From Candidatus Omnitrophota bacterium (lineage in GTDB: Bacteria > Omnitrophota > Gorgyraeia > Gygaellales > Profunditerraquicolaceae), in NCBI GenBank assembly GCA_026387335.1, contig JAPLLX010000006.1:44949-108948 (forward strand): a stretch of 64,000 nt of DNA, read 5' to 3'. This document shows positions 1-5,674 of this stretch, piece after piece. A program made the translations under genes and the position numbers. Each line of letters opens with the position of its first letter. The stretch's first letter is position 1. The notes under the pieces are model-generated. The model had not been told where the DNA came from and searched no databases. It saw nothing but the letters and a program-made list of their open reading frames with translations.

Positions 1-255
1 TATAAAACTAAAGCCTGGGATTGGCTCTTAGAAGCCAGGAAAAAACTGGATAAAATAAATAAAGACCTTAGCGCTGAGAAACTAACCCTGGCCTGGAAAC
101 AAATTTACATACTCGAAGGTAGCGATTGGTTCTGGTGGTACGGAGAAGACCCGGATGGCTCTTTTGATAAGCTCTTTCGCCGGCACTTAAACAACTTCTA
201 CGCGATTATTGGAGAAATTCCTCCGGATTATTTACAGAGCCCTCTAAGTACTTGA
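1..255 (+). CDS. 3' fragment of a glycoside hydrolase family 57 (GH57) alpha-glucan branching/glucanotransferase-like gene; 5' end lies outside the window
   Basis: Frame 1 from nt 1 is open to a TGA at 253-255. It encodes ...GSDWFWWYGEDPDGSFDKLFRRHLNNFYAIIGEIP. The SDWFWWYGE motif is characteristic of GH57 C-terminal regions. Confidence 0.55.
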   Translation, partial: YKTKAWDWLLEARKKLDKINKDLSAEKLTLAWKQIYILEGSDWFWWYGEDPDGSFDKLFRRHLNNFYAIIGEIPPDYLQSPLST

Positions 256-282
256 CATTCAAGGCCTTTTGTGTTATAAATA

Positions 283-861
283 GTGCAAGTTAAAATGGAT
301 AAAAAAGATATCTACGAACATTTAGCCAAGATTTATCTTGACGCTTCTTCTAAGAAGAAAAAACGCAACAAGGCTTACCCGAAACTTTTCCAGAATCTTT
401 TCATCGTAAGCATATTTGTGGTGATCGGCCTGGCGAGTACTTTATTTTCTTCCGCATCTAAGAAGCAGGCCTTGCATTCGGAAACCGCCCTGGTCCTGCA
501 GAATGATCCCGCTAAAATAAATTTTAATTTTAACCCCGCTAAAAAAGAAATCTACACCCTTAACCTAAACCGCCTTAATATAGCCCATTCTAAGGCCTTG
601 GGTTTTTCAGTCAGGAATATCTCCCCTAAGGATAAAATAACTTTAAGGATCGAATTTACCAACGCCTTTAAAGAAAGATCTGAGGTCTACATCCGGGCTA
701 TTCCTTCTAAGTGGCAGGATTTTAAAATCAACTTAGCGGAATTTAAGAATATAACTGACTGGTCAGAAATGACGACTCTGGCTTTTTCGGTTGAAGAATG
801 GAACGCCGCGCAAAAAAAAGGCGTGGTTTATATAGACAATGTCCGGCTTCTTAAAACATGA
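283..861 (+). CDS. Membrane-anchored hypothetical protein with a C-terminal beta-sandwich carbohydrate-binding-module-like domain
   Basis: 192-aa ORF. It has a Lys-rich N-terminus and one strong TM helix (LFIVSIFVVIGLASTLF). The C-terminus ...WNAAQKKGVVYIDNVRL resembles CBM4/9-type domain endings. Its stop lies 18 nt before the ParA start, which has an AAAGGAGA Shine-Dalgarno site. Confidence 0.45.
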   Translation: MQVKMDKKDIYEHLAKIYLDASSKKKKRNKAYPKLFQNLFIVSIFVVIGLASTLFSSASKKQALHSETALVLQNDPAKINFNFNPAKKEIYTLNLNRLNIAHSKALGFSVRNISPKDKITLRIEFTNAFKERSEVYIRAIPSKWQDFKINLAEFKNITDWSEMTTLAFSVEEWNAAQKKGVVYIDNVRLLKT

Positions 862-878
862 AAGGAGAATTTTAAACC

Positions 879-1982
879 ATGCGCATAATAGCGATCACTA
901 ACCAAAAAGGCGGCTGTGGCAAAACTACCACCTCGGTCAATTTAGCTGCGTCTTTAGCCACTAACGGCCGCAAAGTGCTCTTGATTGACCTTGACCCTCA
1001 GTCACACGCTACATTAGGCTTAAATATAAAAGCTCCTTTAAGTATTTATAATGTCCTCTCTAAAACCGCGCATCAAAAGGCCAAGCTTGATGAGATCATC
1101 CAGAATATCAGCCCGGATTTTGATATAGCACCATCTAGCATTATTTTAAGCACAATCGAACAAGAATTATCCGGAGAAATCGGAAGAGAATCCCGGCTCT
1201 GGGATACCTTAAGCGCTTTTAAGGGATGCTACGATTACGTGCTGATAGATTGCCCGCCGAACTTAGGTATTTTAACTATAAACGCCATACGCGCGGCCAC
1301 TGAAGTAATTATCCCGGTTGAGGCCAGCAGATTTTCACTGGAGGGTATGGACCAGTTGCTTGGCATAATCAACTTAGTCCGCGACCGCTTAAACCATGAA
1401 GTCAGTTGTAGAATACTGGTAACGAACTTTGATTCACGGCTAGCGCATTCCTTTAAGATGCTGACGAAGATAAAGACTGATTTTAAAGAGAGACTCTTTA
1501 GCAATATCATCCATGTGAATGTCCGGTTAAAAGAAGCCCAAAATCAGGGCACGCATATATTTAATTTTGACAAATACTGCCGCGGGGCAAAAGATTATTT
1601 CAGCCTTTCCCGGGAAATAATTACTCTGGAAAAAGAACCTAAGCCGGCTACAGTTAAACCGATAGCGGTTTTAGAGAAGAAGATGAATGAAATACTCAAA
1701 AAAGAACTGCCTAAGCTTAATGAAGTAATCTTCTCGGTTTTCGCGCCGGAGGCAAAAGAAGTCTATGTCGCGGGAGAATTCAATAACTGGAAACTGGAAG
1801 ATTCCGGCCGGATGCTTAAAAATAACGGCACCTGGAGCAAAAAATTAAACTTAAACGGCGGCAAATACCGCTATCGCTTTGTTATTGACGGAAACTGGAT
1901 TGAGGATTCCGCTAATCCTTTGAAAGAAGTCAATCCTTACGGTTCAGTTGATTCCCTGATTGAAATAAGCAGCAAAAAATAG
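879..1982 (+). CDS. ParA/MinD-family P-loop ATPase fused to a C-terminal AMPK-beta-type glycogen-binding domain (CBM48)
   Basis: The deviant Walker A motif NQKGGCGKTTTSVNLA and a ParA-like body occupy about aa 1-250. The C-terminal 85 aa read KEVYVAGEFNNW...GKYRYRFVIDGNWIEDSANP...GSVDSLIEI. This aligns with the AMPK beta1 glycogen-binding domain (KEVYLSGSFNNW...GEHQYKFFVDGQWTHDPSEP). Confidence 0.8.
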   Translation: MRIIAITNQKGGCGKTTTSVNLAASLATNGRKVLLIDLDPQSHATLGLNIKAPLSIYNVLSKTAHQKAKLDEIIQNISPDFDIAPSSIILSTIEQELSGEIGRESRLWDTLSAFKGCYDYVLIDCPPNLGILTINAIRAATEVIIPVEASRFSLEGMDQLLGIINLVRDRLNHEVSCRILVTNFDSRLAHSFKMLTKIKTDFKERLFSNIIHVNVRLKEAQNQGTHIFNFDKYCRGAKDYFSLSREIITLEKEPKPATVKPIAVLEKKMNEILKKELPKLNEVIFSVFAPEAKEVYVAGEFNNWKLEDSGRMLKNNGTWSKKLNLNGGKYRYRFVIDGNWIEDSANPLKEVNPYGSVDSLIEISSKK

Positions 1983-2930: not shown

Positions 2931-3281
2931 ATGCAGACTCGAGGCAGGCCCAAAAAATACAGGATAGTGCATCTTGACCCTAAGATAAGCCAGTTTAGCC
3001 CAAGGGGTAAGCCCGGTAGGCCAAATGAGGTAGATCTGAGTATGGATGAGTTTGAGGCTATGCGGCTAAACGACTATATGGGATTACCGCAGAAAGAAGC
3101 AGCCAAATCCATGCATATATCCCAGCAAACCTTTAGCCGGATACTCAAGAAAGCGCATAGAAGCATTGCTAGCGGCTTAATCAACGGAAATACCATAAAG
3201 ATCCAGGGCGGCCATTACGTATTCAGTTCCCGCGAAGAAGATCCTAATCCCAACGTAAAACAACCCGGCGAAAACACCTAA
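2931..3281 (+). CDS. DUF134/UPF0251 family predicted DNA-binding protein
   Basis: GRPKKYRIV...FSPRGKPG...LSMDEFEAMRLNDYMGLPQKEAAKSMHISQQTFSRIL...TIKIQGGHY matches the conserved DUF134 pattern. Confidence 0.7.
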   Translation: MQTRGRPKKYRIVHLDPKISQFSPRGKPGRPNEVDLSMDEFEAMRLNDYMGLPQKEAAKSMHISQQTFSRILKKAHRSIASGLINGNTIKIQGGHYVFSSREEDPNPNVKQPGENT

Positions 3282-3548: not shown

Positions 3549-4652
3549 TTACTTTCGGGTTAAAATAACCTGGGCAGGAAAAATGGAACTCTCTCCAAAG
3601 CGGCTATTGATTCTATCCGTAGCCTTAATCAAGGCCTCTCTGCGTTTTTCCTCAGTTAATAAAGGCAGGTAGCTTTGCCGGCTTAAACCACTGGCAGTTA
3701 CTCCCAAGGCTCGGATTTTATAGCCTTTTTTAGGCATCCTAGCCATCACTCTAAGGGATCTTAGGTATATCTCATAGCTATCATTAGTGGCGCTAGAGAA
3801 GGTTTTTTGGGCTAAGAAATCGCCTGCTTGGGGGTTGTTTAACCAAAGATGCACAGTCCTGGCTATCAAGTTTTGCTGGCGCAGGCGCTGGCCAACCATC
3901 TCTGACAATAGCCTGATCCAGGCCAAGATAAACTGGGGGTTTCCGGATGCGCTGGGTAAAGTGTAGGAATGGCTTATGGACTTAGGCTGCTCCTTACTTT
4001 CATCAGCTTCCTCAAACTTACCGGGATTTTCATCAAAGAACTCCGGCAGCTTTAAATACAGGTCCCAACAGGTCTTTAAACCTTGGGCTATGAAAGCCTG
4101 GCCGGTTTTACCCGCCATCCCGCAGAGCTTACCTATCGCGGTACGAGCTAAGACCTCTTTAAAGTTAGACTCATTTATCAGGGTTAGGCCATTGGGCTTA
4201 TTGATTTTAGAGGCAAGCTTAGCTAAGAGCCAGTTCTTGGCTAGACCTATGGAAGCAGTGATGTTAAAGTTTGCATATATTTGCTCCCGGATCCTTTCGG
4301 CAAGCTTAAGCGGCTCTGGATGCTCCAGAATATCCATCTGGAATTCATCAACTGAAGCATAATTCAGTATGAACCCATAGCCCTTAAGCAGTTCAAAAAT
4401 CTGCTCTGAAGTCCAGATATACTTAGCCTGGTCCGCGGCTACAAATTCCAGATTTGGACATAGGTTAAAGGCATCTTTTGAAGGCATCCCAGAATGGATC
4501 CCTAAAGTTTTGGCTTCATAGCTAGCGGCGCAGACCACAGTGCGCATTTTATTGGCGCGCGAACCCACGATTAAAGGCTTTCCCAAAAGGTGCGGGTTTA
4601 TAGCCTGCTCAATTGAGGCAAAAAACGCGTCCATATCAATATGCAGAATCAT
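3549..4652 (-). CDS. dinB: DNA polymerase IV (Y-family translesion polymerase)
   Basis: MILHIDMDAFFASIEQ is the N-terminus, with catalytic DMDAFFAS and an IMPB/UmuC-like body. GAGG lies 5 nt upstream of ATG 4652. The ORF-track start at 4709 falls inside the upstream hairpin and is unlikely. Confidence 0.85.
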   Translation of the reverse strand: MILHIDMDAFFASIEQAINPHLLGKPLIVGSRANKMRTVVCAASYEAKTLGIHSGMPSKDAFNLCPNLEFVAADQAKYIWTSEQIFELLKGYGFILNYASVDEFQMDILEHPEPLKLAERIREQIYANFNITASIGLAKNWLLAKLASKINKPNGLTLINESNFKEVLARTAIGKLCGMAGKTGQAFIAQGLKTCWDLYLKLPEFFDENPGKFEEADESKEQPKSISHSYTLPSASGNPQFILAWIRLLSEMVGQRLRQQNLIARTVHLWLNNPQAGDFLAQKTFSSATNDSYEIYLRSLRVMARMPKKGYKIRALGVTASGLSRQSYLPLLTEEKRREALIKATDRINSRFGESSIFPAQVILTRK

Positions 4653-4661
4653 ATAAACCTC

Positions 4662-4736
4662 AGGGACGGTTCTCAACTCAAAGCAAAAGTGTCCCCTGTT
4701 AGGGGACACTTTGAGATTAGCTTGAGAACCGTCCCT
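4662..4736 (-). promoter_or_regulatory. 75-nt compound stem-loop immediately upstream of the dinB Shine-Dalgarno site; it includes a terminator-like hairpin plus U-tract
   Basis: It has 15-bp outer arms AGGGACGGTTCTCAA/TTGAGAACCGTCCCT, a 6-7-bp middle stem CTCAAAG/CTTTGAG, and an inner hairpin GTGTCCCCT-gtta-AGGGGACAC. On the minus strand this is followed by UUUUGCUUUG. Confidence 0.6.
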
Positions 4737-5043
4737 AACTAATCAGCTTATCAATCTGCCAGCGGAAGGTGGAATTATTAAATGAAATCTGATATAACTG
4801 GCCCAAGCAGCTAACCGAGAAATAATTAACTAACGCCTGGCCTAAGCGCTCCTGCCAATTGTAAGTGATAGTTTCAATCTGGTATTCTTTATTATTCCAG
4901 GTGAAGCTTTTAGGAAAAATCCTGGCGTTCTTAAAATAAGCTAGGACCTCAATCCGTTCGTCTAGTTCATCCGGATTAAAACCTTGGGGTTGCGGCTCAA
5001 ACCTATCCCAGCGGGCCTTAGGATTAAAACTATTTTGATTCAT
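4735..5043 (-). CDS. Hypothetical 102-aa protein between lexA and dinB; possibly a YolD-like accessory protein of Y-family polymerases
   Basis: Its start overlaps the lexA stop by 14 nt, and a terminator-like hairpin follows its stop. Similarity to YolD is weak (basic-W-acidic DELDE segment) and judged by eye only. Confidence 0.4.
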   Translation of the reverse strand: MNQNSFNPKARWDRFEPQPQGFNPDELDERIEVLAYFKNARIFPKSFTWNNKEYQIETITYNWQERLGQALVNYFSVSCLGQLYQISFNNSTFRWQIDKLIS

Positions 5044-5644
5044 ATTTCCTGATTACTGTCATCAACTTCCCGATTACCTTAAATTCTTCAAAAATTGGCG
5101 GGTAATTCGGGTTAGCCGCTTCCAAATGATATTTATTGCTTTTACGAATCAACCTTTTTAAGGTAACTTCATTATCATCCAAAAGCGCGGCTACAATCGC
5201 ATTATTCTCAGCATAGGGCTGTTTCTTGATAATCGCCACATCGCCTTCCAAGATACCGGCATTAACCATACTATCGCCCTTCACCTTTAAAGCAAAAACA
5301 TCGTCAAAGCCTAAACGGCCCAAAAAGAGATTATCCACATCCACGTACCCTTGAATTTCTTCATAAGCCAGATTTGGCTTGCCAGCCATAATGGTGCCGA
5401 TTATGGGTATTTTATTACAGCTCGCGCGTTCAGTTAATTCCAAAGCCCGGGATTTATTATTCATACGCCGTACCAAACCTTTCTGTTGTAAAGCCTTTAA
5501 GTAATCTCTCGCTGTGCCGGTAGATTTAAATCCCAGCTCCCCTGCTATCTCTCTGATAGTAGGAGGAAGCCTCTCCCCTACCTTTTTGCGGATAAAATTA
5601 AGCACCTTTTCCTGCTTTGGCGTCAGAAACGGCTTCTCTTTCAT
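5030..5644 (-). CDS. lexA: LexA repressor (S24 peptidase)
   Basis: MKEKPFLTPKQEKVLNFIRK...IREIAGELGFKSTGTARDYL is the HTH region. The cleavage site and catalytic region are ...VAAL..., ...VKGDSM... and ...IIKK.... The start was chosen by alignment to canonical LexA N-termini. Confidence 0.9.
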   Translation of the reverse strand: MKEKPFLTPKQEKVLNFIRKKVGERLPPTIREIAGELGFKSTGTARDYLKALQQKGLVRRMNNKSRALELTERASCNKIPIIGTIMAGKPNLAYEEIQGYVDVDNLFLGRLGFDDVFALKVKGDSMVNAGILEGDVAIIKKQPYAENNAIVAALLDDNEVTLKRLIRKSNKYHLEAANPNYPPIFEEFKVIGKLMTVIRKYESK

Positions 5645-5656
5645 GTTTATAGGTAT

Positions 5657-5674
5657 ACCACACATTTGTGTGGT
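5657..5674 (-). promoter_or_regulatory. Candidate LexA operator: a perfect palindrome in the spacer of the lexA promoter
   Basis: ACCACACA-TT-TGTGTGGT has 8-bp arms. On the minus strand it sits between TTGACA and TATACC. An ATG follows 7 nt after the -10, which gives leaderless geometry. Confidence 0.45.

Follow-up and report, generated by a model that had tools for sequence, protein, structure and literature searches.

What is a small membrane protein doing directly upstream of a ParA-type ATPase that carries a CBM48 module of its own? The question is raised by the first kilobases of the window, the whole 64,000-nucleotide stretch of Omnitrophota DNA analyzed here, in which a gene that we designate X188 precedes a gene coding for a ParA-CBM48 fusion. 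The features on which the argument draws are these:

1-255, + strand: GH57 glycoside hydrolase gene, of which the window edge leaves the 3' end; the translation has GSDWFWWYGED.
252-280, + strand: sigma-70-type promoter-like element, TTGACA (252-257), a 17-nt spacer and TG-n-TATAAA (272-280), read from the sequence and conserved across loci.
295-861 including the stop codon, + strand: X188, the gene of interest, coding for a predicted 188-aa bitopic membrane protein (ORF, with the start taken from homologs; AF2 model mean pLDDT 82).
295-348, + strand: X188 residues 1-18, MDKKDIYEHLAKIYLDAS, a near-invariant, predicted cytoplasmic amphipathic helix and proposed ParA-binding peptide (conservation; AF2 helix at residues 3-18).
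349-396, + strand: X188 residues 19-34, a Lys/Arg-rich, low-confidence linker and probable positive-inside signal, basic in all members and 48% identical.
397-456, + strand: X188 residues 35-54, a predicted single transmembrane helix (signal anchor), from hydropathy and the AF2 helix at 29-54.
478-858, + strand: X188 residues 62-188, a CBM11/CBM30-related beta-jelly-roll domain, predicted periplasmic.
862-867, + strand: AAGGAG, the Shine-Dalgarno sequence of the ParA gene, immediately 3' of the X188 stop, read from the sequence.
879-1982, + strand: ParA-CBM48, a ParA/Soj-type ATPase (residues 1-250; 879-1628), a linker and a CBM48/AMPK-beta-type module (residues 279-365; 1713-1973), from Pfam and PDB.
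2039-2443, + strand: a small beta-barrel preceded by a Lys-rich disordered N-terminus (~55 aa); a frequent but non-obligatory neighbor.

The X188 ORF is a real gene and not a chance ORF. It extends over 283-861 on the + strand, and the original prediction had taken its product to be 192 aa long from position 283. The true start is instead the ATG at 295, giving 188 aa, because virtually all homologs begin with MDKK and are 185-190 aa long and because the GTG at 283 sits between the conserved -10 box (275-280) and this ATG. A sequence search at E<=1e-3 recovered 985 homologs and a profile search 453 representatives of 50%-identity clusters. The family, some 1000 sequences in size and almost entirely confined to Omnitrophota, has no name in Pfam or NCBIfam, where scans returned sub-threshold noise only (DNA_mis_repair, DUF5055 and choice_anch_U). 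Searches of Pfam, NCBIfam and PDB sequences gave no match to MinE or McdB, and Pfam and NCBIfam gave none to a ParB/Srx or HTH domain; with its helix-TM-CBM architecture, X188 is, by its domain content, not a ParB. A single weak match to V-ATPase S1 in the family-profile search of PDB sequences (E 0.034) was judged spurious, and a defense-system reading of the locus was dropped because PADLOC showed nothing but P-loop similarity.

The region ahead of X188 carries a conserved promoter-like element. In the locus comparison, a TTGACA-N9-GTTTTRTGYTATAAA arrangement scored 11/12 in 82 of 126 related loci, with its -10 box ending mostly 13 nt before the X188 ATG, and here the stop codon of GH57 (253-255) falls within the -35 box. 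The element emerged from this comparison only, since a consensus promoter scan, which found nothing above shuffled expectation, missed it by demanding that the -10 box have T as its sixth base. At the other end of the gene, a 17-nt spacer separates the X188 stop (859-861) from the ParA ATG (879), and in 78 related loci its length varies from 0 to 282 nt around a median of 18.5 nt. X188 and ParA-CBM48 are likely to be cotranscribed, and it is rather probable that the two by themselves form an operon served by this conserved promoter, a judgment that we pass jointly on this operon and on the rest of the explanation set out below.

The pairing of the two genes is tight whichever of them is used to select the loci, which is the outcome of the co-conservation check named in the original prediction. 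ParA-CBM48 lies directly downstream of X188 in 78/78 loci selected by X188 that had room to test, and X188 lies upstream of ParA-CBM48 in all 56 testable loci selected by ParA at an identity of at least 56%. Remote X188 members (23-32% identical) are still followed by ParA-CBM48, even where the flanking genes are different. Three relatives without the N-terminal helix (P0151, P0204 and P0254) have no adjoining ParA.

The C-terminal half of X188 had been described as a beta-sandwich of CBM4/9 type. AF2 folds residues 61-188 confidently (pLDDT 83-97), in agreement with a beta-sandwich, and the protein ends in VVYIDNVRLLKT as described, but the nearest CBM families are 11 and 30. The domain has no direct match in Pfam, the CBM11 and CBM30 models included. 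The modeled beta-jelly-roll is superimposable on solved CBM11/CBM30 structures (the comparison set being Pfam PF03425 and PF21582 of clan GBD and structures 1v0a, 2c24 and 1wmx), and the X188 profile matches residues 36-160 of P0236 at 2.5e-14, a protein in which Pfam assigns CBM30 to residues 45-160 at 7.8e-19. For the link to CBM11/CBM30-type modules, hhalign gives a probability of 96.3%, so the remote-homology search proposed for this domain did find similarity to CBMs. W140, W156, W169, Y132, R118, E120, E167, N170, D181 and R184 are invariant. Known CBM11/CBM30 modules are joined to a glycoside hydrolase, whereas the X188 domain is joined to a transmembrane anchor and goes unrecognized by Pfam models; its carbohydrate binding is putative.

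Ahead of this domain lies a single hydrophobic segment, residues 35-53, whose Kyte-Doolittle mean over 19 residues is 2.28 (family mean 2.30) and which falls within the AF2 helix, consistent with the one strong TM helix reported at the outset. The model supports X188 as a protein that crosses the membrane once and carries a beta-sandwich of CBM type. Over 35 members, the 15 residues that precede the TM helix hold 7.2 K/R vs 2.1 on its C-terminal side, while relatives carry the same domain either behind a signal peptide (P0254 and P0256) or after a cytoplasmic HD domain and a TM helix (P0204 and P0212). Because of this positive-inside charge and these arrangements, the CBM-like domain is predicted to be periplasmic; the topology prediction that had been asked for thus comes out as N-in/C-out, with X188 a predicted type II bitopic inner-membrane protein. 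A cleavable signal peptide was rejected, the hydrophobic region being 19-24 residues long with 34 residues ahead of it, among them the protein's most conserved part, and SSA-S-like cleavage sites are not conserved in the family. If the domain is periplasmic, it would be unable to reach cytoplasmic glycogen and therefore could not serve there as a binding module, which removes the basis for the earlier proposal of X188 as an adaptor to glycogen.

The partner, 367 aa long, is a ParA fused to a CBM48, as first suggested, with Pfam matches to AAA_31 (2e-54), AMPK1_CBM (3e-13) and CBM_48 (4e-8). It is a ParA/MinD deviant Walker A ATPase with KGGCGKT and a Soj-like fold, M. xanthus ParA (8ray, 3e-49) being its top solved relative, and K10 (the signature Lys), K15 of Walker A, D37 and D39 do not vary across 154 sequences. 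The CBM scores above Pfam thresholds and retains the FNNW, Y-[KR]-F (Y-R-F here) and DGNW (DGxW) motifs of the AMPK beta-subunit CBM; it is fused to a ParA ATPase, whereas known CBM48 modules sit on a kinase scaffold or a GH13 enzyme. A literature search for a ParA-CBM48 fusion found no paper.

If the periplasmic domain does not meet this ATPase, then which part of X188 does? Over 80 genomes, helix 1-18 averages 94% identity, the CBM domain 59% and the TM helix 31%. Y7, L10, A11 and Y14 are invariant in 81/81 sequences, I6, L10, I13 and Y14 are each kept in 77 to 81 of the 81, and a degenerate form of the helix, [DE]-h-x-[DE]-H-[LI]-A-x-x-[YF]-[LF], is present in all remote members. The spacing of I6, L10, I13 and Y14 (i, i+4, i+7, i+8) is that of ParB L11, L15, L18 and I19, and in ParB the hydrophobic residues so spaced bind V116, L150, L152, L155, L187 and L192 of ParA (PMC12462528). 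The equivalent pocket residues in ParA-CBM48 are L129, I131, I134, L166 and L171, with L/I/I/L/L at 5 of the 6 ParB-peptide pocket positions in more than 120 ParA-CBM48 sequences. The contact of X188 with ParA is thus probably made, to judge by this conservation, through helix 1-18 rather than the Lys-rich stretch.

The i, i+4, i+7, i+8 pattern is widespread among amphipathic helices. Clade differences at the pocket-lining residues of ParA are confounded by phylogeny. At the acidic cluster of ParA (equivalents of Y81, E82, D110 and E117), clades differ without tracking the charge of the central peptide residue (E in X188, R in the LGRGL partners described below), and co-variation was not used as evidence because of this and of the phylogenetic confounding.

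The likeness to the M. xanthus ParB 1-20 peptide (PMC12462528) lies in the extreme N-terminal position, the short amphipathic helix and the hydrophobic spacing, and the likeness to ParABS in that the X188 gene adjoins a Soj-type ParA that retains the hydrophobic pocket. The differences are considerable. X188 has no ParB/Srx CTPase domain, HTH or parS, it is a predicted integral membrane protein with its gene upstream of parA, and in place of the central R/K, without which ParB does not stimulate the ATPase and whose replacement in R13A abolishes stimulation (PMC12462528), it has E8, found in 77/81 sequences, with K3 and K4 upstream. MinD-MinE, McdA-McdB and PomZ-PomX (PMC11407121) similarly combine an ATP-dimer ATPase with a small partner that is encoded by an adjacent gene and acts via its N-terminal region. 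Partners of the MinE/McdB/PomX type are, however, soluble or on cargo, whereas X188 would be bitopic with a periplasmic domain of glycan-binding type, and here it is the ATPase itself that bears the putative cargo-binding module.

Other ParA-CBM48 clades bear on the same question. In Desulfobacterales the gene directly after ParA-CBM48 codes for a protein that begins MEKKSLGRGLEDISDIFLS, with a canonical ParB-type LGRGL motif in the same register; such LGRGL-type proteins were never found in X188-type loci. Homology between the two peptides was rejected because the LGRGL peptides gave no significant score (E=12) with an HMM built from the X188 N-terminus, and pattern resemblance alone was retained. 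A third clade has 240-aa proteins upstream with a layout like that of X188 and the helix motif present. Homology of their C-terminal domain with that of X188 was also rejected (hhalign probability 1%), leaving the shared layout and N-terminal motif. Partners of ParA-CBM48 are recognizable as N-terminal-peptide proteins in two phyla.

The best explanation, which as a whole we consider somewhat better than evenly supported, is that X188 is a peptide-type membrane partner of a glycan-binding ParA-CBM48. In the proposed mechanism, helix 1-18 would act like the N-terminal ParA-binding peptide of ParB, with I6, L10, I13 and Y14 docking in the pocket formed by L129, I131, I134, L166 and L171 at the ATP-dimer interface. 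Docking would tether an alpha-glucan-bound ATPase dimer to the membrane, set off its hydrolysis of ATP and its release, or do both. Topology would be fixed by the Lys-rich segment, which would also serve as a flexible spacer, and the CBM11/30-like domain in the periplasm may bind an envelope or periplasmic glycan, thereby setting the location of X188 or reporting the presence of that glycan. We infer the contact between X188 and ParA, the roles of tethering vs ATPase stimulation and the ligand of the periplasmic domain, as well as glycogen as the cargo, its positioning being suggested by the CBM48 domain and the GH57 neighbor.

If instead the two proteins were co-regulated without contact, X188 could be a periplasmic glycan binder or sensor of the same alpha-glucan pathway, with its helix self-associating or binding GH57, the Lys-rich barrel protein or a signaling protein. 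The HD-TM-CBM-like relatives lend this some plausibility, since in them the TM and domain module is the sensor that drives a different cytoplasmic output, and so do E8 in place of the basic residue of the ParB motif, the putative status of the ParA contact, and the GH57 and Alginate_exp-type porin genes found upstream in many genomes. Full-length GH57 orthologs in loci L003 and L047 (Pfam Glyco_hydro_57, 5e-64 and 3e-65) have amylopullulanase entries 8zyi and 9iht as their closest solved relatives (~2e-87) and appear to lack a signal peptide because the alignment to these entries begins at residue 2. The GH57 C-terminus is upstream in most related loci and absent from L085. The Lys-rich barrel protein, with the fold of a U32 C-terminal domain or translation-factor domain II, was ranked lower as a ParA partner, since remote loci lack it or have it elsewhere. 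Loci can do without GH57, the porin and the Lys-rich protein as neighbors but never without ParA-CBM48, the helix-less relatives have no ParA neighbor, and ParA retains a partner-peptide pocket with no other N-terminal-peptide protein encoded nearby, all of which makes co-regulation without contact unlikely in our estimation.

On the neighborhood itself, the Lys-rich downstream protein is an alternative ParA partner in most, not all, genomes, and synteny inside one phylum can last without physical interaction.

We hold it to be distinctly improbable that the pair serves the envelope or the cell cycle as a landmark or in the manner of MinD (in placing the division site, segregating chromosomes or attaching the nucleoid, for example), with the CBM48 sensing glycogen status as in AMPK and not gripping a cargo. 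What speaks for it is that the nearest structures to the ATPase are those of chromosomal Soj/ParA (8ray and 1wcv), that R216, the equivalent of DNA-binding R238, is K or R in 142/154 sequences, that the CBM48 most resembles the AMPK-beta CBM, itself a regulatory sensor of glycogen, and that the activator would be fixed in the membrane and not on mobile cargo. Against this, no ParB, parS or division genes were found near the pair in this locus or related loci, an amylopullulanase-like GH57 gene often adjoins, and the sugar-stacking Trp residues of the CBM48 are kept, suggesting real glucan binding. FtsN-type proteins are bitopic, and BcsQ/BcsB are cellulose-synthase accessories. No sequence relationship of the X188 pair to either was found, its ATPase and periplasmic domain types differ from theirs, and the X188 locus holds no synthase or divisome genes.

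Highly unlikely, in our view, is the arrangement first proposed, in which the Lys-rich peptide KKKKRNK stimulates ParA and the CBM-like domain binds glycogen so that X188 is a tether holding the granule: stimulation of ParA-type ATPases by basic N-terminal peptides is known (PMC12462528), the stretch KKKKRNKAYPK is present at residues 20-30, a Lys-rich tract occurs in all members and the domain has a CBM fold, but the tract is poorly conserved beside helix 1-18, is modeled as disordered (pLDDT <50 at residues 20-26) and abuts the TM helix like a typical positive-inside signal, and the domain lies across that helix, predicted to be outside the cytoplasm, in relatives is exported, and has as its nearest families CBM11 and CBM30, which the titles of the matched structures present as binders of beta-glucans.

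Returning to X188 as a peptide-type membrane partner, a bolder extension, offered tentatively and as the less likely outcome, is that X188 and ParA-CBM48 are a trans-envelope device in which an envelope or periplasmic glycan, by being present or by where it lies, controls the position or mobilization of cytoplasmic glycogen through ATP-dependent tethering and release, with the LGRGL pairs of Desulfobacterales as a soluble-partner version of granule positioning. If true, this would be the first ParA/MinD system with an integral-membrane activator bearing a periplasmic glycan-sensing domain and with an ATPase that grips a polysaccharide storage granule.

ParA/MinD ATPases are a general bacterial means of placing large objects, from chromosomes and plasmids to carboxysomes, chemoreceptor arrays and the division site. 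Their known cargos do not include carbon-storage granules, and a 2024 review of ParA/MinD cargos makes no mention of glycogen, granule or carbohydrate (PMC11407121). A ParA with its own glycogen-binding module would extend this positioning principle to polysaccharide granules. Since X188 (188 aa) and the ParA (367 aa) are small, the hypothesis is testable by heterologous reconstitution despite the phylum being uncultivated. Thousands of "chromosome partitioning protein" annotations are probably wrong, and about 1000 "hypothetical" proteins of the X188 family gain a functional lead. The evidence argues for a so far undescribed system of two genes in Omnitrophota, an uncultivated phylum whose version, with a partner that would cross the inner membrane and place a CBM-type domain in the periplasm, suggests a link between envelope glycan and cytoplasmic storage for which there is no described precedent.

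Whichever gene is used to select loci, X188 and its downstream neighbor ParA-CBM48 are found together, and the two genes are co-conserved as expected from the original prediction. Among 80 genome loci selected by X188 (48-80% identity), all 78 with room downstream carry ParA-CBM48 directly after it, with a median spacer of 18.5 nt; among 80 metagenome loci selected by ParA, X188 lies upstream in 56/56 testable ones whose ParA shares at least 56% identity with that of the window.

Features of the window
252-280: promoter-like element
283..861, forward strand: open reading frame containing X188
295..861, forward strand: X188, a 188-aa membrane protein
879..1982: ParA-CBM48, a ParA ATPase fused to a glycogen-binding-type CBM48
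2458-2640 and 2637-2822: two conserved ~60-aa ORFs, Cys-rich/zinc-ribbon-like, without Pfam match, with a 4-nt ATGA overlap at 2637-2640
2931-3281: DUF134 protein (1.7e-25) after the two ~60-aa ORFs, an order kept in most related loci
3549-5665, reverse strand: SOS-type cassette of LexA (LexA_DNA_bind and Peptidase_S24), a 102-aa ORF without Pfam match and a Y-family DNA polymerase (IMS and IMS_C)

Remote X188 members with 23-32% identity (P0200, P0240, P0252, P0186, P0188) also have ParA-CBM48 directly downstream among different neighbors; at L085, an M23 peptidase and an ABC transporter precede the pair and a DUF4870 membrane protein follows it. Small DUF4870/MamF_MmsF-type membrane proteins lie directly 3' of ParA-CBM48 in several remote clades (L085 7169-7504, L089 2047-2361, L100 3502-3831). 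The conserved core is X188 plus ParA-CBM48, with the upstream glycoside hydrolase GH57 and a downstream Lys-rich barrel protein common but dispensable. The GH57 enzyme is cytoplasmic and most similar to an amylopullulanase of known structure, and glycogen synthesis is encoded by Omnitrophota MAGs (PMC8542988). In the Lys-rich protein, a polybasic, disordered tail precedes a barrel resembling the U32 C-terminal domain or translation-factor domain II. In relatives, an Alginate_exp-type outer-membrane beta-barrel (porin) gene lies just upstream of GH57 (L003 2978-4276, L047 2299-3840), preceded in L003 by a gene whose product has an N-terminus like the Bdellovibrio "mosaic adhesive trimer".

The open reading frame was correctly predicted but its 192-aa product was not: GTG 283 lies only 3 nt past a conserved −10 box, so the start is ATG 295 and the product has 188 residues. 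This box belongs to the pair's own strongly conserved, near-consensus promoter-like element with an extended −10 box (TTGACA, 17 nt, TG-n-TATAAA; TTGACA-N9-GTTTTRTGYTATAAA) whose −35 box contains the GH57 stop codon and which is followed by a very short leader of ~6-7 nt. The element recurs at this position, scoring 11/12, in 82 of 126 related loci, and conservation of its spacer GTTTTRTG points to a further constraint. AAGGAG directly follows the X188 stop codon, with the ParA ATG 17 nt downstream. Co-regulation of two genes whose products make no contact is a reading we regard as unlikely; relatives that lack the N-terminal helix of X188 (P0151, P0204, P0254) have no adjacent ParA. Our favored reading is that X188 is probably the partner, anchored in the membrane and resembling the ParB peptide, of a ParA that binds glucan; its helix would bind the ATP dimer and its periplasmic domain a glycan.

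Of 985 homologs at E ≤ 1e-3, nearly all have 185-190 aa and MDKK as first residues, and 453 relatives emerged when 1.8 billion cluster representatives were searched with a profile. Named homologs come from Candidatus Omnitrophota MAGs, all annotated "hypothetical", and neither Pfam nor NCBIfam recognizes the protein. The predicted Lys-rich stretch, single strong hydrophobic helix (hydropathy 2.28) and beta-rich C-terminal domain ending in VVYIDNVRLLKT are all present. Conservation across 80 species-level genomes differs greatly by region, with Y7, L10, A11 and Y14 invariant.

Regions of X188 in an AF2 model (35-sequence alignment, mean pLDDT 82) and mean identity over 80 species-level genomes
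N-terminal helix: residues 3-18 in the model; residues 1-18, 94%
Basic linker: disordered basic segment, residues 20-26 in the model; residues 19-34, 48%
TM helix: long helix, residues 29-54 in the model; residues 35-53, 31%
C-terminal domain: ten-strand beta-sandwich, residues 65-186 in the model, pLDDT 83-97; residues 65-188, 59%

By analogy with ParB, this N-terminal helix is likely the ParA contact. Like the ParB motif, it lies at the extreme N-terminus and places I6, L10, I13 and Y14 at i, i+4, i+7 and i+8, with K3 and K4 ahead, and five of six positions of the ParB-type pocket are kept in ParA-CBM48 (L129, I131, I134, L166, L171). In ParB, the central R13 contacts Y81, E82, D110 and E117 (PMC12462528). 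X188 has E8 at the position where ParB requires R or K. Remote X188 clades retain [DE]-h-x-[DE]-H-[LI]-A-x-x-[YF]-[LF] as a core motif (for example, MTRDEIYDHLAQVYLGKR and MKKEVSDHLSRAFFEK). An N-terminal X188 HMM had no significant match to LGRGL peptides, the ParB-type ParA-binding motif (E=12), and pocket differences among ParA clades are confounded by phylogeny.

The ATPase itself is a Soj-type ParA (AAA_31, 2e-54), closest to Myxococcus xanthus ParA (8ray, 3e-49), joined by a ~30-residue linker to a C-terminal AMPK-beta-type CBM48 (AMPK1_CBM, 3e-13). Across 154 family members the signature lysine, Walker A lysine and motif-2 aspartates are invariant, and at the position equivalent to DNA-binding R238, 142 have K or R. 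In L086 (592-1606), the gene is interrupted by a stop/frame break after residue 211, an assembly error or pseudogene. The AMPK-beta motifs FNNW, Y-R-F and DGNW are all retained in the CBM. That the pair is an envelope or cell-cycle landmark system in which this CBM48 acts as a glycogen sensor is a reading we consider quite improbable.

The C-terminal domain of X188 is CBM-like, as predicted, but of the CBM11/CBM30 rather than the CBM4/9 type: Foldseek matched 1v0a (E 1.4e-6) and the CBM30 structure 1wmx (1e-4), the family profile matches multidomain secreted proteins precisely where Pfam places CBM30 or CBM_11, and hhalign against the CBM30 domain of P0236 gave 96.3% probability at 32% identity. 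K/R residues average 7.2 in the 15 residues preceding the TM helix and 2.1 after it, so the predicted topology is N-in/C-out. Relatives carry the same domain after a classical signal peptide (P0254, P0256) or within large secreted PKD and beta-helix proteins, and these bacteria have outer-membrane porin genes. Because of this charge bias and these exported relatives, the domain is most likely periplasmic. In P0204 (L082 3297-4721) and P0212, a cytoplasmic HD/HD_5 (HD-GYP-like) domain precedes the TM helix and X188-type domain, so this TM-plus-domain module is reused as a periplasmic input to a signaling output. A domain predicted to lie in the periplasm could not serve as a handle for cytoplasmic glycogen, and the pairing of a Lys-rich activator with a glycogen-binding CBM, as originally proposed, is thus very improbable.

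Other ParA-CBM48 clades have other candidate partners. One, at 40-51% ParA identity to the window and represented by named Desulfobacterales MAGs, lacks X188; in 12 of 20 such loci, an unannotated protein that starts MEKKSLGRGLEDISDIFLS and mostly has 120-190 aa is encoded after ParA (L147, L150, L152 at 4082-4645, L154, L155, L156, L157, L159, L160, L163, L167, L169). These starts carry the canonical ParB-type motif, in an unchanged register; the proteins contain no ParB domains, several have a Cys-rich region, and they look like a second uncharacterized partner family of glycogen-binding ParAs. LGRGL-type motifs are absent from all X188-type loci. In two of these 12 loci, L155 (1994-2911) and L167 (1249-2208), the LG[RK]GL peptide instead heads a longer protein of ~305-319 aa; the L167 protein scores against P-loop models of the MinD/Mrp type (Pfam ParA, AAA_31, CbiA) and would be a ParA-binding peptide joined to another ParA/MinD-like ATPase. 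In a third clade, a 240-aa protein abuts or overlaps the ParA start (L164 2264-2998, L171 2270-3004, L166 426-1139) and shares the layout of X188: EDVLYDHIANTYF in its N-terminal region, then a basic tract and a TM helix, with ~170 aa beyond. Its C-terminal domain has no detectable homology to X188 (hhalign 1%).

We found no publication that connects ParA to CBM48 or to glycogen granules, and a review of ParA/MinD cargos from 2024 is silent on both glycogen and granules (PMC11407121). If X188 is the partner of ParA-CBM48, then its cytoplasmic helix would bind the ATP dimer, resulting in tethering or stimulated hydrolysis, and its periplasmic domain would bind an envelope or periplasmic glycan. 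The logic of a ParA with an N-terminal-peptide partner is already known; what is new is a membrane-spanning, CBM-bearing partner and a CBM48-fused ATPase.
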